The position numbers were made by a program, and so were the translations under genes. Under the pieces are notes generated by a model. The model was not told where the DNA came from, did no database searches, and was given only the letters and a program-made list of their open reading frames with translations. Below are positions 11,904 to 46,209 of a stretch of 64,000 nucleotides of DNA, piece by piece; position 1 is the first letter of the stretch; each line of letters starts with the position of its first letter. The stretch lies in assembly GCF_058153355.1 (NCBI RefSeq), contig NZ_CM177019.1; one strand, 5' to 3'.

Positions 11904-12746
<843 letters not shown>

Positions 12747-12762
12747 TTCCAGGGATTTATAA

Positions 12763-13521
12763 ATGAAACAAACACAACGTCACAACGGTATTATTGAACT
12801 GGTTAAACAGCAGGGTTATGTCAGCACCGAAGAACTGGTGGAACACTTCTCCGTCAGTCCGCAGACTATTCGTCGTGACCTCAACGAGCTGGCGGAGCAA
12901 AACCTGATCCTGCGTCACCATGGCGGCGCGGCACTGCCTTCCAGTTCGGTTAACACGCCGTGGCACGATCGTAAGGCCACCCAGACCGAAGAAAAAGAGC
13001 GTATTGCCCGCAAAGTGGCGGAGCAAATTCCTAACGGCTCGACGCTATTTATTGATATCGGCACCACGCCGGAAGCGGTGGCGCACGCGCTGCTTAATCA
13101 CAGCAATTTGCGCATTGTGACCAACAATCTCAACGTCGCTAACACGCTGATGGTAAAAGAAGATTTTCGCATCATTCTTGCAGGTGGCGAATTACGCAGC
13201 CGCGATGGTGGGATCATTGGCGAAGCGACGCTCGATTTTATCTCCCAGTTCCGCCTTGATTTCGGGATTCTGGGGATCAGCGGCATCGATAGCGACGGCT
13301 CGCTGCTGGAGTTCGATTACCACGAAGTTCGCACCAAACGCGCTATTATTGAGAACTCGCGCCACGTTATGCTGGTTGTCGATCACTCGAAATTTGGCCG
13401 TAATGCGATGGTCAATATGGGCAGCATCAGCATGGTCGATGCCGTCTACACCGACGCCCCGCCACCAGCGAGCGTGATGCAGGTGCTGACAGACCATCAT
13501 ATTCAGCTGGAGCTGTGCTGA
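12763..13521 (+). CDS. glpR: glycerol-3-phosphate regulon repressor GlpR (DeoR family)
   Basis: 252 aa; N-terminal helix-turn-helix; conserved position after glpG. Confidence 0.93.
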   Translation: MKQTQRHNGIIELVKQQGYVSTEELVEHFSVSPQTIRRDLNELAEQNLILRHHGGAALPSSSVNTPWHDRKATQTEEKERIARKVAEQIPNGSTLFIDIGTTPEAVAHALLNHSNLRIVTNNLNVANTLMVKEDFRIILAGGELRSRDGGIIGEATLDFISQFRLDFGILGISGIDSDGSLLEFDYHEVRTKRAIIENSRHVMLVVDHSKFGRNAMVNMGSISMVDAVYTDAPPPASVMQVLTDHHIQLELC

Positions 13522-15101
13522 TCCTGCACGGCTTCCCACGTCAGACCAAAACGCGCCAGGTATTTGCGTAGCCGATCCGCGTCGTTGACGCTGGCTTTGC
13601 CCTGGCGCGAAACATCAAAGAGTTCACGCCCGGCAGCGGAAAGCGATTTTGCCTGACGGCAGATAGCGATAACGTGTTCCAGTTGCAGCCGATCAAAGAG
13701 GTCGATGTTTTCCGCTTCAGTGCCCAGTAGCTGCTTAAGCGCAGAAGAGCGGCTATCCTGCCAGTTGTAGCGTAGACGGTTTATCTCATCTTCTACGGTT
13801 TCAAGGGTGATACGCCCACTATCGGCAAACGTCGCCATGCGTGTGACGCTGGCAGAAAGTTCGCGAAAGTTACCGCGCCATGCTGCCTGAGATGATGTCG
13901 CAAAGGCCAGCCAGGCGCGCCTCGCTTCGGTGTTAAAACGCACGCTGTCGCCGGTAAGTGAGGCGTGGCGCTCCACTTCATAATCCAGGTTCGGTTCAAT
14001 ATCTTCCTGGCGCTGGCGTAGACCCGGCAGGGTGAAGGTCCAGAGATTGATCCGCGCGTACAGGTCTTCGCGAAATTTGCCTTCGGCAACCAGCTGACGC
14101 AAATCGCGCACCGTTCCGGCGATCAGCTGAAAATCACTGCTCACCAGGCGATCGCTACCAAACGGGTAAAAGGTTTTCTCTTCAATGGCTTTTAGCAACA
14201 TTGCCTGTTCGTCTGCGCCCAGTTCGCCAATCTCATCAAGAAACAACATGCCGCCGTTGGCGCTGCGTAATAACCCTTCACGAGATTCCCGCGCCCCGGT
14301 AAACGCGCCTTTCACATGACCAAACAGCGCGGACATGGCGGTATCGCCACGCAGAGTGGCGCAGTTCACTTCCACAAACGCGCCGCTAAACTGATGCCGC
14401 GCCTGTTTTAACTCGAAGATGCGTCGTGCCAGAAACGACTTTCCCGCACCGGTTGGGCCGTTGAGCAGGATCGGTGCGCGGGATCTAATCGCCACTTTTT
14501 CGATCTGCTCAATCATGCGGTTGAAGTGGGCGTTACGCGTGGCAATGCCGGATTTGAGGAAATCGAGGGTTTGCTGGCGTTCTTCGGCAAAGCGGCTGGC
14601 AATAGCGTTATAACGGCTTAAATCGAGATCGATAATCGTCACCGCACCAGGGCTGTTGGGCTGTTCTTTTTTACGCGGTGGCGAAGATTGTATTAACCTG
14701 GCGGGCAGGTAACGTGCTTCCGCCAGCAGAAACCAGCAAATCTGCGCGACGTGGGTACCGGTGGTGATGTGAATTAAATAGTCTTCTTTATCAGGTTGGA
14801 ATGCGTAACCACGGGCAAAATCATGCAGGCAGGCGTAAACCTCCTCGAAATCCCATGGGTTATGCAGTTCAATCTCAACGCCCACCACTTCTGTTTCTGG
14901 CGAAACATTGGCGATATCGCGTTTAAGCGTTTCAAACAGCGAGCGTGAGCGGACGTCGTGCAACAATTCCAGTCGATCGATGACTAACGATTCTTGCTGG
15001 CATAGACAGAGTGACGGACGCCATTTCGACCATCGCTGACTGCCGCGCCCGGCATAATCCAGTACGGTGCCGACAAAGCCAAAAGCCACTGTTTTACGCA
15101 T
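13503..15101 (-). CDS. rtcR: sigma54-dependent transcriptional activator RtcR
   Basis: 532 aa; AAA+ sigma54-interaction domain (GPTGAGKS Walker A, GAFTGA motif); divergent from rtcBA; 3' end overlaps glpR by 19 bp. Confidence 0.9.
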   Translation of the reverse strand: MRKTVAFGFVGTVLDYAGRGSQRWSKWRPSLCLCQQESLVIDRLELLHDVRSRSLFETLKRDIANVSPETEVVGVEIELHNPWDFEEVYACLHDFARGYAFQPDKEDYLIHITTGTHVAQICWFLLAEARYLPARLIQSSPPRKKEQPNSPGAVTIIDLDLSRYNAIASRFAEERQQTLDFLKSGIATRNAHFNRMIEQIEKVAIRSRAPILLNGPTGAGKSFLARRIFELKQARHQFSGAFVEVNCATLRGDTAMSALFGHVKGAFTGARESREGLLRSANGGMLFLDEIGELGADEQAMLLKAIEEKTFYPFGSDRLVSSDFQLIAGTVRDLRQLVAEGKFREDLYARINLWTFTLPGLRQRQEDIEPNLDYEVERHASLTGDSVRFNTEARRAWLAFATSSQAAWRGNFRELSASVTRMATFADSGRITLETVEDEINRLRYNWQDSRSSALKQLLGTEAENIDLFDRLQLEHVIAICRQAKSLSAAGRELFDVSRQGKASVNDADRLRKYLARFGLTWEAVQDQHSSS

Positions 15102-15235
15102 CTTAGATATCCTTATAAAAGACGATATTTCATTATCGGCGAATTGGCTTTGCGGGAAATCTCCGTTTACGGACGTACAGATTTTATCTATTTAAAAACA
15201 ATGAATTAAAAAATTAAGCTGCTTATTTAATTTTC

Positions 15236-15251
15236 TGGCACGACGGTTGCA
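15236..15251 (+). promoter_or_regulatory. sigma54 promoter of rtcBA
   Basis: TGGCAC-N5-TTGCA, a perfect -24/-12 sigma54 element, ~40 bp upstream of the rtcB start. Confidence 0.7.
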
Positions 15252-15289
15252 ATTATCTGGACAGCAAACAACGAAAAGAGAAAAACAAA

Positions 15290-16507
15290 ATGAATTACGA
15301 ATTACTGACCACTGAAAATGTCCCGGTAAAAATGTGGACCAAAGGCGTACCGGTAGAAGACGATGCGCGTCAGCAACTGATAAATACGGCGAAGATGCCG
15401 TTTATTTTCAAACATATTGCGGTAATGCCTGATGTACATCTGGGTAAAGGTTCCACCATTGGTAGCGTGATCCCGACCAAAGGGGCGATTATTCCGGCGG
15501 CGGTGGGGGTAGATATCGGTTGTGGAATGAACGCACTGCGAACTGCGTTAACGGCGGCTGACCTGCCTGAAAACCTGGCGGAGTTGCGTCAGGCGATTGA
15601 AGCTGCCGTGCCGCACGGACGTTCCAATAATCGTAGCCGTCGTGATAAAGGCGCATGGGAGAATCCGCCTGTTAACGTCGATGCGAAATGGGCTGAGCTT
15701 GAAGCCGGTTATCAGTGGTTAACGCAAAAATATCCGCGTTTCCTTAATACCAATAACTATAAACACCTGGGAACGGGAAACCACTTTATTGAAATCTGTC
15801 TTGATGAGTCGGACCAGGTGTGGATTATGCTGCACTCCGGTTCACGCGGAATCGGTAATGCCATCGGGACTTACTTTATCGATCTGGCGCAAAAAGAGAT
15901 GCAGGAAACGCTTGAAACGTTGCCATCGCGTGACCTGGCGTACTTTATGGAAGGTACGGAATATTTTGACGATTACCTGAAAGCGGTGGCCTGGGCGCAG
16001 CTTTTTGCCAGCCTTAACCGCGATGCGATGATGGAAAATGTGGTAACGGCGTTGCAGAGCGTTACGCAGAAAACGGTAAGACAGCCACAAACGCTGGCGA
16101 TGGAAGAGATCAACTGTCACCACAACTATGTGCAAAAAGAACAGCACTTTGGCGAAGAGATCTATGTGACGCGTAAAGGCGCGGTGTCTGCGCGTGCTGG
16201 TCAATATGGAATTATTCCCGGTTCGATGGGGGCGAAAAGCTTTATTGTCCGTGGGCTGGGAAATGAAGAGTCGTTCTGTTCGTGCAGCCACGGTGCCGGG
16301 CGGGTAATGAGCCGTACTAAAGCGAAAAAACTGTTCAGCGTGGAAGATCAAATTCGTGCTACCGCGCATGTGGAATGCCGTAAAGATGCCGAAGTGATCG
16401 ACGAAATCCCGATGGCGTATAAAGATATCGACGCGGTGATGGCGGCACAAAGCGATCTGGTGGAAGTAATCTACACCCTGCGTCAGGTGGTGTGTGTAAA
16501 AGGATAA
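15290..16507 (+). CDS. rtcB: RNA-splicing ligase RtcB
   Basis: 405 aa; conserved Asp75/Cys78 (DIGCG) and GNHF motif. Three residues shorter than my recollection of the K-12 protein (see findings). Confidence 0.9.
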   Translation: MNYELLTTENVPVKMWTKGVPVEDDARQQLINTAKMPFIFKHIAVMPDVHLGKGSTIGSVIPTKGAIIPAAVGVDIGCGMNALRTALTAADLPENLAELRQAIEAAVPHGRSNNRSRRDKGAWENPPVNVDAKWAELEAGYQWLTQKYPRFLNTNNYKHLGTGNHFIEICLDESDQVWIMLHSGSRGIGNAIGTYFIDLAQKEMQETLETLPSRDLAYFMEGTEYFDDYLKAVAWAQLFASLNRDAMMENVVTALQSVTQKTVRQPQTLAMEEINCHHNYVQKEQHFGEEIYVTRKGAVSARAGQYGIIPGSMGAKSFIVRGLGNEESFCSCSHGAGRVMSRTKAKKLFSVEDQIRATAHVECRKDAEVIDEIPMAYKDIDAVMAAQSDLVEVIYTLRQVVCVKG

Positions 16508-17527
<1,020 letters not shown>

Positions 17528-17569
17528 TGCAGAGATGTAAGCCGGATCTGGCGCGTTAACCGGCTAAAC

Positions 17570-20281
<2,712 letters not shown>

Positions 20282-20794
20282 TCACTTCACTGTGGAAAAT
20301 GAGGAAATATTATTTTTTTTGCGCTTCGTAATTAATGGTTATAAGGTCGGCCAGAAACCCTTCTAATGCAAGCGATGACGTTTTTTTATGTGTCTGAATT
20401 TGCACTGTGTCACAATTCCAAATGTTTATTAACAACTCACCTAATAACGACGCTGATGCAGCGTGAATACTGGGTTTTACGGTATTTTCCTCATGTTCAT
20501 CAGTTTCATTTAAGCAAGGGAGTCTTCTCAATTCCTGATGAAAGAGCCATCTAAAAAGAGGATCTTAATAAACCTATTAAGAATGAGATGGAGCAAACTG
20601 GATGTTTTACTTATGAAACTGTTTCACTCCTTTACTTAATTTATAGAGTTACCTTCCGCCTTTTGAAAATACACAACGGCCATTTTTTGCACTTAGATAC
20701 AGATTTTCTGCGCTGTATGGCATTGATTTGCTGCTAATCCTGTGGATTGCACTAGGTTTAAGTGGTCGAGATCACATTTCCTTACTCATCCCCG

Positions 20795-23292
<2,498 letters not shown>

Positions 23293-38927: not shown

Positions 38928-40211
38928 ATGCAACTTACCAACGAAGAACAAGTACAGATTGCTCGTATAAAAGAAAAAATCCCACGCATTGCCGCACTGG
39001 ATCCTGAATGTAAGTTATTCGGTTCTGAAGGTTGGAAATATCAATGGCCGAAGCCTGCCAGCGAGGCGGAAATAGCTTCCTGGGAGAAAAAACATAGCGT
39101 CACTTTGCCACGGGAATATCGAATTTTTCTTCGCTATATCGCTAATGGCGGTCCGGCACATGCCTACGGTCTTGAATCTTTAGGCGGTACAGATATTTAT
39201 GGCGATATAACAAAAGAAAGCCCTGTACCGCTTTATATGACGCAGCAGGATGTTGATGTGTTGAATGCAGGCCGTACAGAAGATGATGAAGAATATAGTT
39301 TTTTTGACGGCGCATTGACCATTCTCACCCTGGGATGTACTTATGATATTTGCCTGGTGGTGACGGGGCAGTATCGCGGAAGGTTAATGCTGACTGATGG
39401 TGATGAAGATTATCCGTTTGATTTTATATATGATAAAAATTTCCTCAACTGGTATGAACGCTGGCTGGACGATTTTATTGCTGGCATGAGTATGAAGGGT
39501 TTCGATAGAAGTTTGCCAGGAACGCAAATTCAACTGCGTGAGTGGTTTTTAACTGAGAAAATCCCGGATTTACGTAGATCCATTTTATTCTCGCTATGCC
39601 GTTTTCCACAGATAGAACCCGAAACATTTGCCCTTTGGGAACATGTTTGCCGCACAGAGAATGATAAAGAATTGTGTGAAGAGGCATTCATAAGATTACG
39701 CCAAAAAAAAGTTTCTTGTGCTGCAGATATTTTTCGACTCTATTTTACAATGCCAGATGAATTACGTGATATTGCTATTAAAGATCTCCGTTTTGCCTGT
39801 AGAGATAGTGTGGTGAATATTGAGGATTATATTCATTCACTGTTAATAATAATGCCTGAACTTGACGATGACACTCTATCCTCAGCTGTCTTTGCTGTAC
39901 GAGAAACAGAGTATAATAAATATGATACTTTTCTGCCGCTTCTCGAACGTATCACTGATGACCGTCAGCAAACATTATTGTGGGCGATGAGTAAGGCGCC
40001 TGATTTCAATGAAAGCCGAGGATTCGTTGAGTTGGTATTACCGCTTTTTGCATCATCAAAGATGGAGAATGTAAGGAAGGCTATTTTGTTGCTCATTGAA
40101 GTTAAAGATAATCGTATTCCACCATTGGTTGATGAAGCTGCAACTCGTTTCCCTGAACTGACCATTTTACGAGAAAACTACTATCTCAGGACGTGGGGAC
40201 ATAAGCCATAA
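38928..40211 (+). CDS. SMI1/KNR4 (SUKH-1)-like protein with C-terminal helical extension; putative immunity-type protein
   Basis: 427 aa from the ATG at 38928 with Shine-Dalgarno AAGGA. N-terminal motif EIASWEKKHSVTLPREYRIFLRYIANGG matches the LPxxYxxFLxxxNGG hallmark of the SUKH family. Visibly AT-rich; no counterpart at this site in K-12. Confidence 0.65.
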   Translation: MQLTNEEQVQIARIKEKIPRIAALDPECKLFGSEGWKYQWPKPASEAEIASWEKKHSVTLPREYRIFLRYIANGGPAHAYGLESLGGTDIYGDITKESPVPLYMTQQDVDVLNAGRTEDDEEYSFFDGALTILTLGCTYDICLVVTGQYRGRLMLTDGDEDYPFDFIYDKNFLNWYERWLDDFIAGMSMKGFDRSLPGTQIQLREWFLTEKIPDLRRSILFSLCRFPQIEPETFALWEHVCRTENDKELCEEAFIRLRQKKVSCAADIFRLYFTMPDELRDIAIKDLRFACRDSVVNIEDYIHSLLIIMPELDDDTLSSAVFAVRETEYNKYDTFLPLLERITDDRQQTLLWAMSKAPDFNESRGFVELVLPLFASSKMENVRKAILLLIEVKDNRIPPLVDEAATRFPELTILRENYYLRTWGHKP

Positions 40212-40248
40212 ATTAATGGCTCAGAAATGATCTAACGCGGAGAGAAAT

Positions 40249-40779
40249 ATGATCAGGGAACATATTCAGCAAGCGATAAATAATAGGTTAGCATTTGATG
40301 GCCCATTCAATGTTGTTCCTGAACCTGCAAGCACTGCGTTTGATAGCCGGATCCCGACATTGAAAAACGGTGTCTGGCAGAAGGCCAGCCCTATGTTGCA
40401 GGCGCGTTTTGCACATTGTGGACGTTGGTTAAGCGCTACACATGGAAGCTGGCTAAGTATAAGTGACATGGAAACGCTTTGGCAGGAACACATAGAAGAT
40501 ACGTTTCTTGATGAAATCAAAATGAATGCTGTAGCTTCAAGTGATAATTGGGATAACCATGCCTTGGGACTATTTCGTTCTCATCGCCTGTCACTTTTTG
40601 CCGGTAGTGATTACATTTATGAAATGGTTTTTCTCCTTTGGCTAGATAGTACCGTTGAGCCAGAGGTCTGGGTTTATGACTGCAATGGGGAATCACGTTA
40701 TAAAGATCTTAATGATTACCTGAATGCATATATTAATGATGACGTAAGCGCCTGTGAGCGCTCCTGGCGAGTAGAATGA
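40249..40779 (+). CDS. hypothetical protein (island gene 2)
   Basis: 176 aa ORF with Shine-Dalgarno GGAGAG; AT-rich; stop overlaps the next start (ATGA). No family recognised. Confidence 0.55.
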   Translation: MIREHIQQAINNRLAFDGPFNVVPEPASTAFDSRIPTLKNGVWQKASPMLQARFAHCGRWLSATHGSWLSISDMETLWQEHIEDTFLDEIKMNAVASSDNWDNHALGLFRSHRLSLFAGSDYIYEMVFLLWLDSTVEPEVWVYDCNGESRYKDLNDYLNAYINDDVSACERSWRVE

Positions 40780-41402
40780 ATAGCCCCCCTTGCCCCTTTG
40801 ATCCACAAACCGCACATTACCTCGGTACAGTGCAAATCCACTACACCTCAACCACCTTCAACGCTGCCGTTAAGCATTATACCTATCACATTAAAAAGCG
40901 TTTTAAAGGGTTTAAATGGGGAATTGGTACCGCTGGCTTATTGGCTATATTGCCCATGATCCCACAATGGTTGAAACCTTCTCATGACTTTAAACTCAAC
41001 GCAATCAGTACGTTAATTCTTCTATTAATGTTGCCACTCCTCTTATCAATGTTCCTGTTAATCAGCAGAAGAATTAACGATTTTAAGTCAAAAACAAAGC
41101 AAGTTACTTTTACGAAACCCGTGCGTTATGCGTTTTATTTCGAGGGGATTGTTTTTTATGAATCTCATCAGCAGGGCATACTTCGCTGGGAAGATTTTTA
41201 TAGCATTGACTATGAAGAAGATTATTTGTGGCTTTTTCTGCATTTACCGAAGAGTTTTCCCAGAGAAGCGACGAAAGCGTTTTGCGATATTTTCATTCCC
41301 GCCAGCGCGATAAAAGCGCAGCCTGAACTGGATACGTTTTTTCGTGAAACACGCCACTATCTGGATTATCTGTTTGTCCCGTTTAATTCTGACAGAAAAT
41401 AA
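40776..41402 (+). CDS. hypothetical membrane protein, two predicted TM helices (YcxB-like topology)
   Basis: 208 aa; hydrophobic segments WGIGTAGLLAILPMIPQWL and ISTLILLLMLPLLLSMFLLI followed by a ~100 aa soluble domain; translationally coupled to island gene 2. Confidence 0.55.
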   Translation: MNSPPCPFDPQTAHYLGTVQIHYTSTTFNAAVKHYTYHIKKRFKGFKWGIGTAGLLAILPMIPQWLKPSHDFKLNAISTLILLLMLPLLLSMFLLISRRINDFKSKTKQVTFTKPVRYAFYFEGIVFYESHQQGILRWEDFYSIDYEEDYLWLFLHLPKSFPREATKAFCDIFIPASAIKAQPELDTFFRETRHYLDYLFVPFNSDRK

Positions 41403-41435
41403 AAAATCCCCCGTATCTGGTGAAACGGGGGATTT
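41403..41435. terminator. bidirectional terminator between island gene 3 and pck
   Basis: aaaaaatcccccgt-atctggtga-aacgggggattt stem-loop with A/T runs on both sides. Confidence 0.55.
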
Positions 41436-41454
41436 CGTCGCTTAACTTATCGGA

Positions 41455-43077
41455 TTACAGTTTTGGACCAGCCGCTACCAGCGCGGCACCCGCAGGGGTG
41501 TCGGTGTATTTATCGAAGTTGTCGATAAACAGTTTCGCCAGAGTTTCGGCTTTTTCCTGCCACTGTTCCGGAGAAGCGTAGGTGTTACGCGGATCGAGGA
41601 TCTTAGTGTCTACGCCCGGCAGTTCAGTCGGGATCGCCAGGTTAAACATCGGCAGAGTGAAGGTTTCTGCGTTATCCAGCGAACCGTTGAGGATAGCGTC
41701 GATAATGGCGCGGGTATCTTTAATGGAGATACGTTTGCCAGTACCGTTCCAGCCGGTGTTAACCAGATATGCCTGCGCACCCGCCGCTTGCATACGTTTC
41801 ACCAGCACTTCTGCGTACTGAGTTGGGTGCAGCGACAGGAACGCCGCGCCGAAGCAAGCGGAGAAGGTTGGCGTCGGTTCGGTGATGCCACGTTCAGTAC
41901 CGGCCAGTTTGGCGGTGAAGCCAGAGAGGAAGTGGTACTGAGTTTGATCGGCAGTCAGGCGAGAAACCGGTGGCAGCACACCAAAGGCGTCTGCGGTCAG
42001 GAAGATAACTTTAGTTGCATGGCCCGCTTTGGAAACCGGTTTAACGATGTTATCGATGTGATAGATCGGATAAGAAACGCGGGTGTTCTCGGTTTTTGAA
42101 CCATCGTCAAAATCGATAGTGCCATCTTCACGTACGGTGACGTTTTCCAGCAGCGCATCGCGACGGATAGCGTTGTAGATTTCAGGTTCCGCTTCTTTCG
42201 ACAGCTTGATGGTTTTCGCGTAGCAGCCGCCTTCGAAGTTAAACACGCCGTCGTCATCCCAGCCGTGCTCGTCATCGCCAATCAGGCGACGTTTCGGGTC
42301 GGTGGAAAGGGTGGTTTTACCGGTGCCGGAAAGACCAAAGAACACCGCAACATCGCCTTTCTCGCCAACGTTGGCGGAGCAGTGCATAGAAGCGATGCCT
42401 TTCAGCGGCAGCAGGTAGTTCATCATTGAGAACATCCCTTTCTTCATTTCGCCGCCGTACCAGGTGCCGCCAATCAGCTGCATACGCTCGGTCAGGTTAA
42501 ACGCCACGAAGTTTTCAGAGTTCAGCCCCTGCTCTTTCCACTGGGGGTTAGTGCATTTTGCGCCGTTCATAACGATAAAGTCAGGTTTAAAACCAGCCAG
42601 CTCTTCATCGCTCGGGCGAATAAACATGTTTTTGACAAAATGCGCCTGCCAGGCCACTTCGGTGATGAAACGGACGGAAAGACGCGTGTCTGGGTTCGCA
42701 CCACAGAAAGCGTCGACAACGAACAGACGTTTACCGGAAAGCTGTTTGGTCACCAGGCCCTTCAGATGCTGCCAGGTTTCCGGAGAGAGAGGTTTGTTGT
42801 CGTTCTTACCTTTGCCTTTATCAGCCCACCAGAAGGTATCGCGAGTGGTATCGTCACGGACGATATATTTATCTTTTGGTGAGCGACCGGTGAATATACC
42901 GGTATCGACGGCAACGGCACCCAGATTAGTTAACACCCCGCGCTCATAACCTGTCAGGCTCGGATCGAGCTCTTCCTGATACAGCAGGTCGTAGCTTGGG
43001 TTGTAAACGATATCATGTACGTCACTGATACCATAAGCCTCGAGTTCTTGCGGGGTCAAACCATTGTTAACGCGCAT
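41455..43077 (-). CDS. pck: phosphoenolpyruvate carboxykinase (ATP)
   Basis: 540 aa from [17 protein letters not shown]; kinase motif GLSGTGKTT; track ORF is extended 23 codons. Confidence 0.95.
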
Positions 43078-43455
43078 TTCACTGCTCCTTAGCCAATATG
43101 TATTGCCTGAATAGTAAAGTCTTTTTGGGGGTGTTAACCGCGACAAGGCTCATAGATTTACGTATCTGGAGAAATTCATATTTGACAAAAAACTCCGTGA
43201 TTCCTGTCACGAAACGGTTGCTATTATCGCAGAAATAGCATTTTAGGTGTGGAAAATGTTCTTAAAAGGTTAAATCTTGGTTTATATGGCGGGAATATTG
43301 TGAGTGGAATCGCATTCCTGAATGAAATTGATGCAAATTCAATCAGTAAAGTATCGATTCACCACGCTAACTTTTTTTGATTATTTTCTGAAAAAAGCAA
43401 AATACTACGGCCCGGATGCGATAATTAACCCACTTTTTGATTCTGGATAACTAAC

Positions 43456-45180
43456 ATGGATAACGTTGAACTTTCACCCGCAACACGCTGGGGGATGATT
43501 GCTACCGGATTACTTCAGGGTCTGGTTTGCTACCTACTGATCGCCTGGCTTGCCGGAAAAAATCTCAGTTGGATTGTTTATGGCGTGCCTGCGACCGTCG
43601 CGTTTTCATCCGTTTTACTCTTCTCCGTGATCTCCTTTAAACAGAAGCGCCTTTGGGGATGGCTGGCGCTGGTGTTTATTGCCACGCTGGGAATGAGCGG
43701 CTGGCTGAAGTGGCAAACTGATGGCATGAACCCCTGGAGAGCTGAAAAGGCGCTTTGGGATTTTGGTTGCTATCTGCTGCTGATGGCAATGTTGTTGCTA
43801 CCGTGGATACAACAAAGCCTTCGCATCCGCAATGACAGTAGCCGCTATCGCTATTTTTACCAGTCAGTATGGCATAACGTACTTATATTACTGGTGATTT
43901 TTCTCGCCAATGGCCTGACGTGGCTGGTGCTATTACTGTGGAGTGAGTTGTTTAAACTTGTTGGCATCACGTTTTTCAAAACGCTCTTTTTTGCAACCGA
44001 CTGGTTTATTTATCTCACGTTAGGTCTGGTTACCACACTGGCGGTGATCCTCGCGCGTACACAGTCACGTTTAATCGACTCTATTCAAAAGTTGTTCACG
44101 TTAATCGCCACTGGGTTGCTGCCGTTAGTATCATTGCTAACCCTGATGTTTATCATCACCCTGCCGTTTACGGGCCTGAGCGCGATTTCTCGCCACATCT
44201 CCGCCGCCGGGTTGCTGTTGACGCTGGCCTTTTTGCAATTGATTTTAATGGCTATTGTCCGCGATCCGCAAAAAGCGTCACTTCCCTGGACGGGGCCGTT
44301 GCGTTGCCTGATTAAAACCGCTCTGCTGGCTGCTCCGCTGTATGTGTTCGTCGCCGCCTGGGCGTTATGGCTGCGGGTCGCTCAGTACGGCTGGACTGTC
44401 GACCGCTTGCAGGGCACGCTGGCGGTGCTGGTGTTACTGGTATGGTCGCTGGGGTATTTTGTCAGTATCGTCTGGCGTAAAGGGCAAACCCCTCTTGTTC
44501 TTCAGGGCAAAGTGAACCTTGCGGTTTCGTTATTGGTGTTGGTAATACTGGTGCTTCTTAATTCGCCGGTGCTGGATAGTATGCGCATTAGTGTGAACAG
44601 TCATATGGCACGTTATCAGAGCGGCAAGAACACGCCAGATCAGGTAAGTCTCTACATGCTCGAACAGAACGGTCGCTATGGACGTGCGGCGCTTGAGTCG
44701 CTGAAAAGCGATGCCGAGTATATGAAAGACCCGAAACGCGCACGGGATCTGCTGATGACGTTAGATGGAGAGCAACATCTTCAGGAACAGGTATCGGAAA
44801 AAGTATTAGCCGAAAATGTGTTAATTGCCCCAGGCTCTGGCAAACCGGATACGGCATTCTGGTCGGCCTTAATCCAGGATCGCTATAACGTGATGACCTG
44901 TATTGAAAAAGACGCCTGCGTACTGGTCGAGCAAGATCTGAATAGTGATGGTCAGGCGGAGCGGATCCTGTTTGCTTTTAATGATGACAGAGTCATTGTC
45001 TATGGCTTTGACCCGGCCAGAAAAGAATGGGACGCGCTTGATATGAGTTTACTTCCGCGCCAAATAACGAAAGAAAAATTACTCGCTGCTGCGAAGGATG
45101 GAAAACTGGGGACGAAGCCTAAAGCATGGTGTGATCTGACGGTAGATGGTGAAACGCTGGAAATAAACCTAAGTAAGTGA
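43456..45180 (+). CDS. yhgE: inner-membrane protein YhgE
   Basis: 574 aa polytopic membrane protein; conserved position next to pck. Confidence 0.88.
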
Positions 45181-45250
45181 CAATGCGTATTTGATTTTTT
45201 ATCGGATACGACGCTTTATCTTACCAACAATAACTTGCGAATTATTGCAT

Positions 45251-45279
45251 AGGCCTGGTAAGCGCAGCGCATCAGGCCA
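45251..45279. repeat. REP palindromic unit
   Basis: aggcctggtaagcgcagcgcatcaggcc between yhgE and hslO. Confidence 0.45.
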
Positions 45280-45324
45280 TTACGTCGTAAAATCCGGCAG
45301 AGCACTCTCTGCCGGACATACTCA

Positions 45325-46209
45325 TTAATGAACTTGCGGATCTGCCGGAGACGCGTTGTTGCGGATTTCAGCAATATCCATCGCATTGAACAGATAGTGG
45401 TTACCGCAGTAATCACAATGCATGTCAATTTCGCCTTCTTCCGCCAGAATGCTATCCACTTCTTCATCCGGCAGCGTTTTTAGCGCGTCGGCGCAACGTT
45501 CACGCGAGCAGGTGCATTTGAACTCCACATCCTGCGGATCGTAAACCGTCACCTCTTCTTCGTGATACAAACGCCACAACACTTCGTTTGCCGGTAAGGT
45601 CAGCAGTTCTTCGGTTTTGATGGTTTCGGTTAGCGTTGCCAGGTGGTCAAAGTCGTCCTGCTGGGCATTTTGCGCAGGCATTACCTGCAACAACATACCG
45701 CCTGCAGCCGGTTTGCCGTCTACGTCGCCGGTGCGAATAAACAGGCGCGTCGGCAGCTGTTCAGAACGCATAAAGTAATCTTCCAGGCAGGCCGCCAGGG
45801 TATCACCTTCCAGACCAACCACGCCCTGATAGCGTTCGCCTTCGCTCGGAGTAATGGTGATCACTACGTAACCATTGCCGACCAGCGTTTTCAGGTCGGC
45901 ATTTTCTGGAATTTCGCCCTGCACGCGCGCCACACCGCGCATCTGCTGGTTGTTGTTACCATTAATAACCGCCAGATTCATCGGTCCGTCGCCTTGCAGT
46001 TGTACGGTGATATCACCATCAAACTTCAGCGTAGCGGTTAACAGGCTGGTCGCAACCAGCAGTTCTGCCAGCACGTTTTTAACGGGCTGCGGATAATCGT
46101 GATTCTCAAGGATCTGTTGCAGGGTTTCCGAAACGGTTACCAGTTCGCCGCGAACGGCAAAGTTTTCAAACAGATAGCGATGTAATTGGTCATGTTGCGG
46201 CATAATCAT
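45325..46209 (-). CDS. hslO: redox-regulated chaperone Hsp33
   Basis: C-terminal zinc centre CTCSRERC...CDYCGNHY; N-terminus MIMPQHDQL (start may be 6 nt downstream). Confidence 0.93.

Follow-up and report, generated by a model that had tools for sequence, protein, structure and literature searches.

A rare one-unit allele of a length-variable, in-frame 9-bp repeat in rtcB of Escherichia coli

An rtcB gene of Escherichia coli with a single unit of a 9-bp coding repeat is described from a stretch of DNA of 64,000 nucleotides (the window; contig NZ_CM177019.1 of assembly GCF_058153355.1). The gene very probably contains a coding tandem repeat in contracted form, shortened by slippage within a conserved active-site loop. 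The repeat unit is CTGGGAACG, encoding Leu-Gly-Thr. E. coli strains vary at this site between 1 and 4 units, which goes beyond the reading of an earlier note on this DNA. The allele is a rare natural contraction of a known length-variable, slippage-prone repeat in rtcB; the finding is modest and is not a new system.

The features of the locus are the following (window coordinates, strand, description, source).

13503..15101, minus strand: rtcR, sigma-54 activator, divergent from rtcB; intact, 532 aa (ORF list).
15236..15251, plus strand: sigma-54-type promoter element TGGCAC-N5-TTGCA, putative, upstream of rtcB, intact (read from the sequence).
15290..16507, plus strand: rtcB, RNA 3'-phosphate/5'-OH ligase; ATG to TAA, 405 aa plus stop (ORF list).
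15512..15523, plus strand: GAT ATC GGT TGT, Asp75-Ile-Gly-Cys78, unchanged; metal-binding Asp and bridging Cys (sequence, alignment).
15767..15775, plus strand: sole remaining repeat unit CTGGGAACG, Leu160-Gly161-Thr162 (alignments, per-sequence copy counts).
15776..15787, plus strand: GGA AAC CAC TTT, Gly163-Asn164-His165-Phe166, corresponding to Gly166-Asn167-His168-Phe169 of K-12 (sequence, alignment).
15833..15835, plus strand: CAC, His182, corresponding to the Mn1 ligand His185 of K-12; shift of 3, in numbering only (sequence, alignment).
16511..17527, plus strand: rtcA, RNA 3'-phosphate cyclase; intact, 338 aa, 3 bases past the rtcB stop.

Gene order is glpR-rtcR-rtcB-rtcA-malT, common to the window and K-12. 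The arrangement is that of an rtcBA operon, with rtcB followed by rtcA, a divergent rtcR and a sigma-54 promoter element. The sequence TGGCAC-N5-TTGCA is taken by us to be the rtcBA promoter, from the known RtcR/sigma-54 dependence of this operon. rtcR has the length of the annotated rtcR of K-12 and N96; for the L007 gene identical to it, the Pfam domains RtcR and Sigma54_activat are recorded. rtcA is represented in L007 by a 338-aa gene call with PF01137 and PF05189, in the same layout as in K-12. In EC21Z-048, one of the two other genomes with a one-unit rtcB, rtcA is annotated as frameshifted. The rtc region of the window belongs to a diverged allele class, with 90-95% identity to most E. 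coli.

The product of rtcB matches Pfam PF01139 from residue 29 to residue 405 (profile positions 1-426) with 433.5 bits and an E-value of 1.4e-129, at a cut-off of 27. The matching gene in complete E. coli genomes is annotated 'RNA-splicing ligase RtcB'. Identity to K-12 RtcB is 98% by protein alignment, with 10 amino-acid substitutions beyond a 3-aa gap, as is typical of the diverged allele class. RtcB of strain N96 differs by 1 residue and the 3-aa gap.

K-12 MG1655 rtcB (b3421) is 1227 bp in length and encodes 408 aa, compared with 405 aa in the window. Both the DNA and the protein alignment contain a single gap, of 9 bp and 3 aa respectively, which is the sole difference in length. The K-12 DNA reads CAC-CTGGGAACG-CTGGGAACC-GGT (H-LGT-LGT-G; protein HLGTLGTGNHF), and the window reads CAC-CTGGGAACG-GGA (H-LGT-G; protein HLGTGNHF). 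The gap amounts to one 9-bp unit. The ligands of the binuclear metal site, Asp75, Cys78, His165, His182 and His278, are all present and aligned in the window. The nucleophilic histidine, His334 in the motif CSHGAGR, is invariant in the alignment; it presumably corresponds to His337 in E. coli numbering.

The earlier note had described a 405-aa ORF with Asp75 and Cys78 in DIGCG, Asn164 and His165 in GNHF and His182 in LHSGSRG, all confirmed by alignment. The K-12 numbering with which it had compared these positions is correct: the published residues are Asp75, Cys78, Asn167, His168, His185 and His281 (PMC8051266, PMC9745838). The in-frame 9-bp difference that it placed between residues 78 and 164 is borne out by the DNA and protein alignments, and its suggestion that a short tandem repeat near HLGTGNHF may have lost a copy agrees with them. 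Of the two outcomes that it named, a benign allele or an effect on the metal site, the present evidence leans to impairment. The claim depended on K-12 RtcB not being itself a protein of 405 aa with an identical sequence here; K-12 RtcB was found to have 408 aa, so the claim stands.

The allele is real and is common to at least two assemblies. Across the locus, a single base in 7218 separates the window from contig DAXYJU010000015.1 of GCA_043012465.1, and the exact protein of the window is public as EGO8351887.1 and HFG3508640.1. The window's own allele is absent from the 5,426 complete E. coli genomes surveyed. It is very improbable that the short form is an artefact of sequencing or assembly, the true gene having two units (read-level sequence CTGGGAACGCTGGGAACG) of which one was collapsed. 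Assemblers can collapse short tandem repeats, and Tandem Repeats Finder reports no repeat in the window gene; this null result is expected because only one unit is left, and is no evidence against an origin from a repeat. Against an artefact, an array of 18 bp is far below any read length, and the same contraction is present on other backgrounds in two complete genomes. An artefact is unlikely because a separate public assembly carries the same deletion (1 SNP in 7.2 kb), as do the two protein accessions.

Whole units of CTGGGAACG were seen between strains in numbers of 1, 2, 3 and 4, which makes the site a coding VNTR. The series is the following (allele, repeat, copy number, length of the protein).

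Window: CTGGGAACG at 15767-15775; 1 unit; 405 aa.
K-12: CTGGGAACG-CTGGGAACC; 2 units; 408 aa.
N96, the nearest allele among the complete genomes: TTGGGAACG-CTGGGAACG; 2 units; 408 aa.
O157:H7 FRIK944: three perfect units; 3 units; 411 aa.
O157:H7 N8B7-2: four perfect units; 4 units; 414 aa.

One unit is also present in strains EC21Z-048 and ETEC1747. Alleles of 1, 3 and 4 units were counted among the 5,426 complete genomes by blastn at strict E-values, with a short query designed for each copy number. The counts for 1, 3 and 4 units are lower bounds, as alleles with several mismatches in the flanks escape the queries. A 111-bp megablast across the junction was replaced by these queries because BLAST joined two overlapping pieces and copy numbers were not separable; the longer O157:H7 alleles were uncovered by that search.

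rtcB is present in 4,857 of the 5,426 complete genomes and lacking in about 570. In the complete-genome census, about 97% of rtcB genes have two units. Sixty records sampled evenly down the ranking comprised 58 genes of 1227 bp, one of 1236 bp and one remnant (58/59 full-length genes of 1227 bp). In one genome an IS1 element adjoins a 105-bp remnant of rtcB. The one-unit junction (44-nt query) was found in 2 genomes, those of EC21Z-048 (human, China) and of ETEC1747 (pig, Belgium); rtcB is 1218 bp long in each. The three-unit array occurs in at least 79 genomes, mostly of cattle-associated O157:H7, but also of isolates from pig, yak, giant panda and sediment. The four-unit array occurs in at least 45 genomes, one of O157:H7 and the rest mostly human clinical, several labelled ST361 or '361'. 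In the complete genomes the expanded alleles outnumber the one-unit allele about 60-fold. Clonal sampling distorts such counts, so an argument from this rarity is only suggestive.

From the comparison of sequences we regard it as settled that the two-unit state is ancestral and that the window carries a deletion, rather than K-12 an insertion, because every other relative examined has two units. The reverse polarity, with a one-unit form ancestral or typical of this divergent E. coli lineage and a duplication in K-12, is improbable in the extreme. The diverged character of the rtc region of the window would suit it. It is already contradicted by N96 and the remaining top matches, the nearest neighbours within that class, all of which are 1227 bp with two units, and by the two-unit state of 260/260 distant relatives with the motif region and of the archaeal and eukaryotic structures.

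Outside the repeat, rtcB of the window differs from that of N96 (two units) by 10 bases, and from the other two one-unit alleles by 65 and 67 bases; those of EC21Z-048 and ETEC1747 differ from each other by 16 bases. The distances of 65 and 67 bases, set against 10, indicate that the contraction arose at least twice independently. The same length change on unrelated backgrounds, that is homoplasy, is found for the 1-, 3- and 4-unit alleles.

In most E. coli two near-identical 9-bp units encode the conserved Leu-Gly-Thr-Leu-Gly-Thr before Gly-Asn-His-Phe. Slipped-strand mispairing in replication, or unequal recombination between units, would be expected to add or remove whole units in frame. 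The resulting alleles would have 1, 2, 3 or 4 units and proteins of 405, 408, 411 or 414 aa. Replication slippage is the most likely and the simplest mechanism, judging by the anatomy of the repeat. A one-unit allele is unable to regain two units by slippage because no repeat is left. Frame-shift phase variation was rejected, as the unit is 9 bp and every allele is in frame.

The contraction falls in a motif of two units, (Q/H)LG(T/S)LGxGNH(F/Y), that is family-wide. The motif is intact in 260/260 cluster representatives containing the motif region, and none of these has a shortened form. HLG[TS]LGTGNHF is present in 119/119 other cluster representatives down to 70% identity; at the 50% clustering level, each of the 141 representatives in which the region is present shows the two-unit spacing. 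Numbered backwards from the Gly in GNH, these 141 have Gly at position -2 (141/141), Leu at -3 (140/141), Thr or Ser at -4 (141/141), Gly at -5 (136/141) and Gln or His at -7 (131/141). Sequences of solved structures read IGTLGSGNHF (Thermus), LGSLGSGNHF (Pyrococcus, residues 195-204) and LGTLGAGNHY (animal). The window protein retains positions -1 to -3; at -4 to -7 it carries His, Lys, Tyr and Asn. Its loop is not of full length: it reads YKHLGTGNHF, with Lys and His in place of Gly and Thr/Ser at -5 and -4. Tyr-Lys-His stands where almost all other RtcB proteins have Leu-Gly-(Thr/Ser).

Structural statements in this work rest on Pyrococcus numbering and on AlphaFold models; a PDB search returned no E. 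coli RtcB. His168 of the E. coli enzyme (Pyrococcus His203), with Asp75 and Cys78, holds the second manganese, and Asn167 (Pyrococcus Asn202) forms hydrogen bonds to the 5'-OH nucleophile and to the phosphates of GTP; in E. coli N167A, guanylylation of the 3'-phosphate is 70-fold slower and ligation fails (PMC8051266, PMC9745838). In the Pyrococcus enzyme with a 5'-OH strand, the first two phosphodiesters are bound by Gln194, the main-chain amide of Ser200 and Arg190 (PMC8051266, PMC9745838). Pyrococcus His404 is the guanylylated nucleophilic histidine (PMC9745838). Pyrococcus residues 194-203 align to His159-His168 of E. coli, which is the stretch shortened in the window.

The contraction would leave six residues (LGTGNH) of a nine-residue non-regular loop (LGTLGTGNH). 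The shortened loop would run up to the His that ligates Mn2 and to the Asn by which the 5'-OH nucleophile is held. The counterpart segment in Pyrococcus contacts the 5'-OH strand via Gln194, the main-chain amide of Ser200 and Asn202. On balance, the one-unit RtcB is predicted, with moderate confidence, to be a hypomorphic or dead ligase, with strand joining reduced or lost.

Family-profile scores, obtained with a profile from 116 relatives and with the window background held constant, are 630.2 bits for 1 unit, 647.4 for 2 units, 640.9 for 3 units and 640.0 for 4 units. Relative to two units the contraction costs 17 bits, and the expansions cost 6.5-7.4 bits. Scores against Pfam PF01139 are 433.5 for the one-unit protein of the window versus 447-450. 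In an NCBIfam scan the proteins of 1 to 4 units all score below the curated cut-offs of the RtcB models, and the database names 'RtcB family protein' and 'RNA-splicing ligase RtcB' are therefore unreadable as a functional call.

The AlphaFold model of the one-unit window RtcB has a mean pLDDT of 93.3 and a pTM of 0.92, and that of the two-unit protein a mean pLDDT of 95.3. In residue blocks 151-160 and 161-170 the mean pLDDT is 94 and 95 with two units versus 80 and 83 with one unit; both models were made from the same alignment, and AlphaFold confidence is weak evidence on the effect of a deletion. In the two-unit model the motif is a coil running into a beta-strand from Phe169. The one-unit model lacks the short turn that the two-unit model forms at 157-159. 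The RtcB fold is recovered by Foldseek, with matches to 8ODO, 4DWQ, 1UC2 and 7P3B at TM 0.78-0.80 and E-values of about 1e-29 to 1e-26.

Several observations speak against impairment. Leu-Gly-Thr still directly precedes Gly-Asn-His, no metal ligand is missing, the nucleophile His334 is in place, and the protein is still modelled with confidence by AlphaFold in the RtcB fold (pLDDT 93.3). The allele has lasted long enough for a SNP to separate the two assemblies that contain it. With rtcR, rtcA and the promoter element all intact in the window, the operon shows no sign of decay. The 3- and 4-unit alleles persist in successful clones, and the loop therefore tolerates a change of length in at least one direction.

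A benign length polymorphism, with a flexible loop, a fully competent one-unit ligase and a selectively neutral copy number, is possible but unlikely. It is favoured by the frequency of 3- and 4-unit alleles in thriving lineages, by the LGT-GNHF kept beside the catalytic residues, by the overall confidence of the AlphaFold model and by the intact neighbouring genes of the operon. The contraction, unlike the expansions, replaces invariant positions (-4 Thr/Ser, 141/141; -5 Gly, 136/141); it costs 17 bits as compared with 6.5-7.4, and local pLDDT drops by 12-14 points. A neutral one-unit allele should accumulate, because slippage cannot re-expand it, yet the allele is very rare.

Impairment of the ligase is still preferred. 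The rtc operon of E. coli is dispensable, being conditionally useful and not essential. Roughly one in ten of the complete E. coli genomes is without rtcB, which is consistent with a dispensable operon. An impaired allele would be tolerated for this reason.

It is improbable that repeat number is a selected switch of RtcB activity or substrate choice, the function of the one-unit enzyme being altered and not lost. Changes in copy number recur on several backgrounds, some copy numbers are fixed in clones, and the loop touches the 5'-OH strand, all of which would fit such adaptive tuning. Set against it, copy number has no known link to any phenotype, slippage alone predicts the recurrence, and the types of the LSPA-6 assay (see below) are not congruent with phylogeny, as for a homoplastic neutral marker (PMC5320567). 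The related proposal that the number of Leu-Gly-Thr units is a natural tuning element, and the one-unit enzyme a separation-of-function variant, is likewise doubtful and is put forward with low confidence. If tuning were true, the one-unit enzyme might guanylylate itself or RNA 3' ends and yet fail, or shift specificity, in 5'-OH joining (compare N167A). The 3- and 4-unit enzymes of O157:H7 lineage II and of ST361-like clinical clones would then differ in RNA repair capacity, and a typing marker would be tied to a stress-response phenotype.

RtcB is conserved from bacteria to humans and is, to our knowledge, the only known family of 3'-phosphate/5'-OH RNA ligases. With GTP and Mn2+, its members join RNA ends that bear a 3'-phosphate or a 2',3'-cyclic phosphate to 5'-OH ends. 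Natural alleles of different loop length are ready-made probes of the positioning of the 5'-OH strand and of the second metal. A repeat that probably serves as an anonymous typing marker in O157:H7 sits within the catalytic motif of RtcB; differently typed strains may therefore differ in RNA repair after damage by toxins or antibiotics. Should the one-unit allele be no more than inactive, it would be a further instance of E. coli dispensing with the rtc operon, of little wider consequence.

Length variation at this site of rtcB is probably already known in practice. [quoted passage not shown] 2004 in PMC4609728, PMC5320567 and PMC8762402. Strains of O157:H7 are typed in it by amplicon size at insertion/deletion polymorphisms of six loci, of which rtcB is one (PMC4609728, PMC8762402, PMC10893428, PMC5320567). 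In one study LSPA-6 types were not congruent with genome phylogeny (PMC5320567), as expected of a slippage-prone marker. In the literature consulted, neither the place of the repeat in the active-site motif nor the one-unit allele is discussed. A primer pair that is presumably that of LSPA-6 for rtcB flanks the repeat. These primers match O157 rtcB exactly, and one to four units would give products of 261, 270, 279 and 288 bp, respectively; a full-text literature search for their sequences gave no match. On the secondary papers and the in-silico check with these primers, the LSPA-6 size polymorphism at rtcB may be this 9-bp repeat.

The LSPA-6 alleles of rtcB resemble that of the window in being in-frame insertions or deletions, and O157:H7 genomes differ here by whole 9-bp units (2, 3 or 4). 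The LSPA-6 alleles checked are the two-unit form and its expansions (3-4 units), whereas the window carries a one-unit contraction. Unlike the LSPA-6 strains, the window has a non-O157 background and a diverged site for the forward primer. With K-12 RtcB, a GTP/Mn2+-dependent 3'-phosphate/5'-OH ligase encoded in the RtcR-controlled rtcBA operon, the window shares the gene, the locus and all catalytic residues; it differs in having a single Leu-Gly-Thr in the loop ahead of GNHF, where K-12 has LGTLGT. RtcB of Pyrococcus horikoshii (4DWQ, 4ISZ, 7LFQ, 8DC9) and human RTCB (7P3B, 8ODO) have the same fold and active-site motifs. They are proteins of 480-505 aa with the full LG(S/T)LG(S/A)GNH(F/Y), whereas the window protein belongs to the proteobacterial subfamily of about 405 aa and has a loop three residues short. 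The rtcB repeat has in common with bacterial slippage VNTRs a unit that is a multiple of three, variation between strains by whole units and recurrence across backgrounds. Unlike the usual coding VNTRs, its array is very short (1-4 units) and lies inside a universally conserved catalytic motif, not in a surface protein or linker.

The rtc neighbourhood of the window (12000-21000, glpR-rtcR-rtcBA-malT) is 90-95% identical to 5408 of the 5470 matching E. coli records, the top match overall reaching 98.7% identity. For comparison, the stretch at window 40000-46000 shares 95-99% identity with most genomes. By this contrast, E. coli harbours deeply diverged allele classes at the rtc neighbourhood. 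Accessory genes lie near yhgE, pckA and hslO within 40000-46000: a SMI1/KNR4 family protein and two hypothetical proteins. At least 80% of this stretch is covered in only 19 of 5426 complete E. coli genomes.

The 4-unit allele of rtcB (four copies of the 9-bp coding repeat, 414 aa) is carried by at least 45 complete E. coli genomes (matches including H193-H232). Nearly all carriers were isolated from human clinical cases and several bear the label ST361 or '361', which suggests fixation of the allele in a clinical clone; one is an O157:H7 strain. In protein P0012 (HAV8428854.1 / MGD2709158.1), an RtcB of 408 aa from E. coli, Cys takes the place of Gly166 in the GNHF motif (LGTLGTCNHF), a further natural change adjoining the catalytic Asn/His pair. 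Proteins P0043, P0046 and P0048, 623-637 aa in length and one of them attributed by name to Shigella sonnei, combine RtcB and RtcA domains in a single chain and look like rtcB/rtcA read-through or fusion products.

Absence of rtcB is recorded for about 570 of the 5426 complete genomes. The locus of strain 2013C-4991 (L008) is a case of natural rtcB loss: a 105-bp 3' remnant of rtcB adjoins an IS1A element (L008 3291-4107), rtcR, glpR and the upstream neighbours of both are missing, and glgP is adjoined by a truncated pstS-like gene. Strain EC21Z-048 is one of two complete E. coli genomes with 1-unit rtcB. Downstream of the gene, rtcA is annotated as frameshifted (locus L005, 3757-4772), which could reflect operon decay or an assembly error.

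On the glpR side of rtcB, the window has the following features.

12763-13521, glpR, intact ORF of 252 aa.
15236-15251, sigma-54-type -24/-12 element, TGGCAC-N5-TTGCA; the start codon of rtcB follows about 40 bases downstream.

In the record of K-12 MG1655 glpR is marked as a pseudogene, whereas the window has the complete reading frame.
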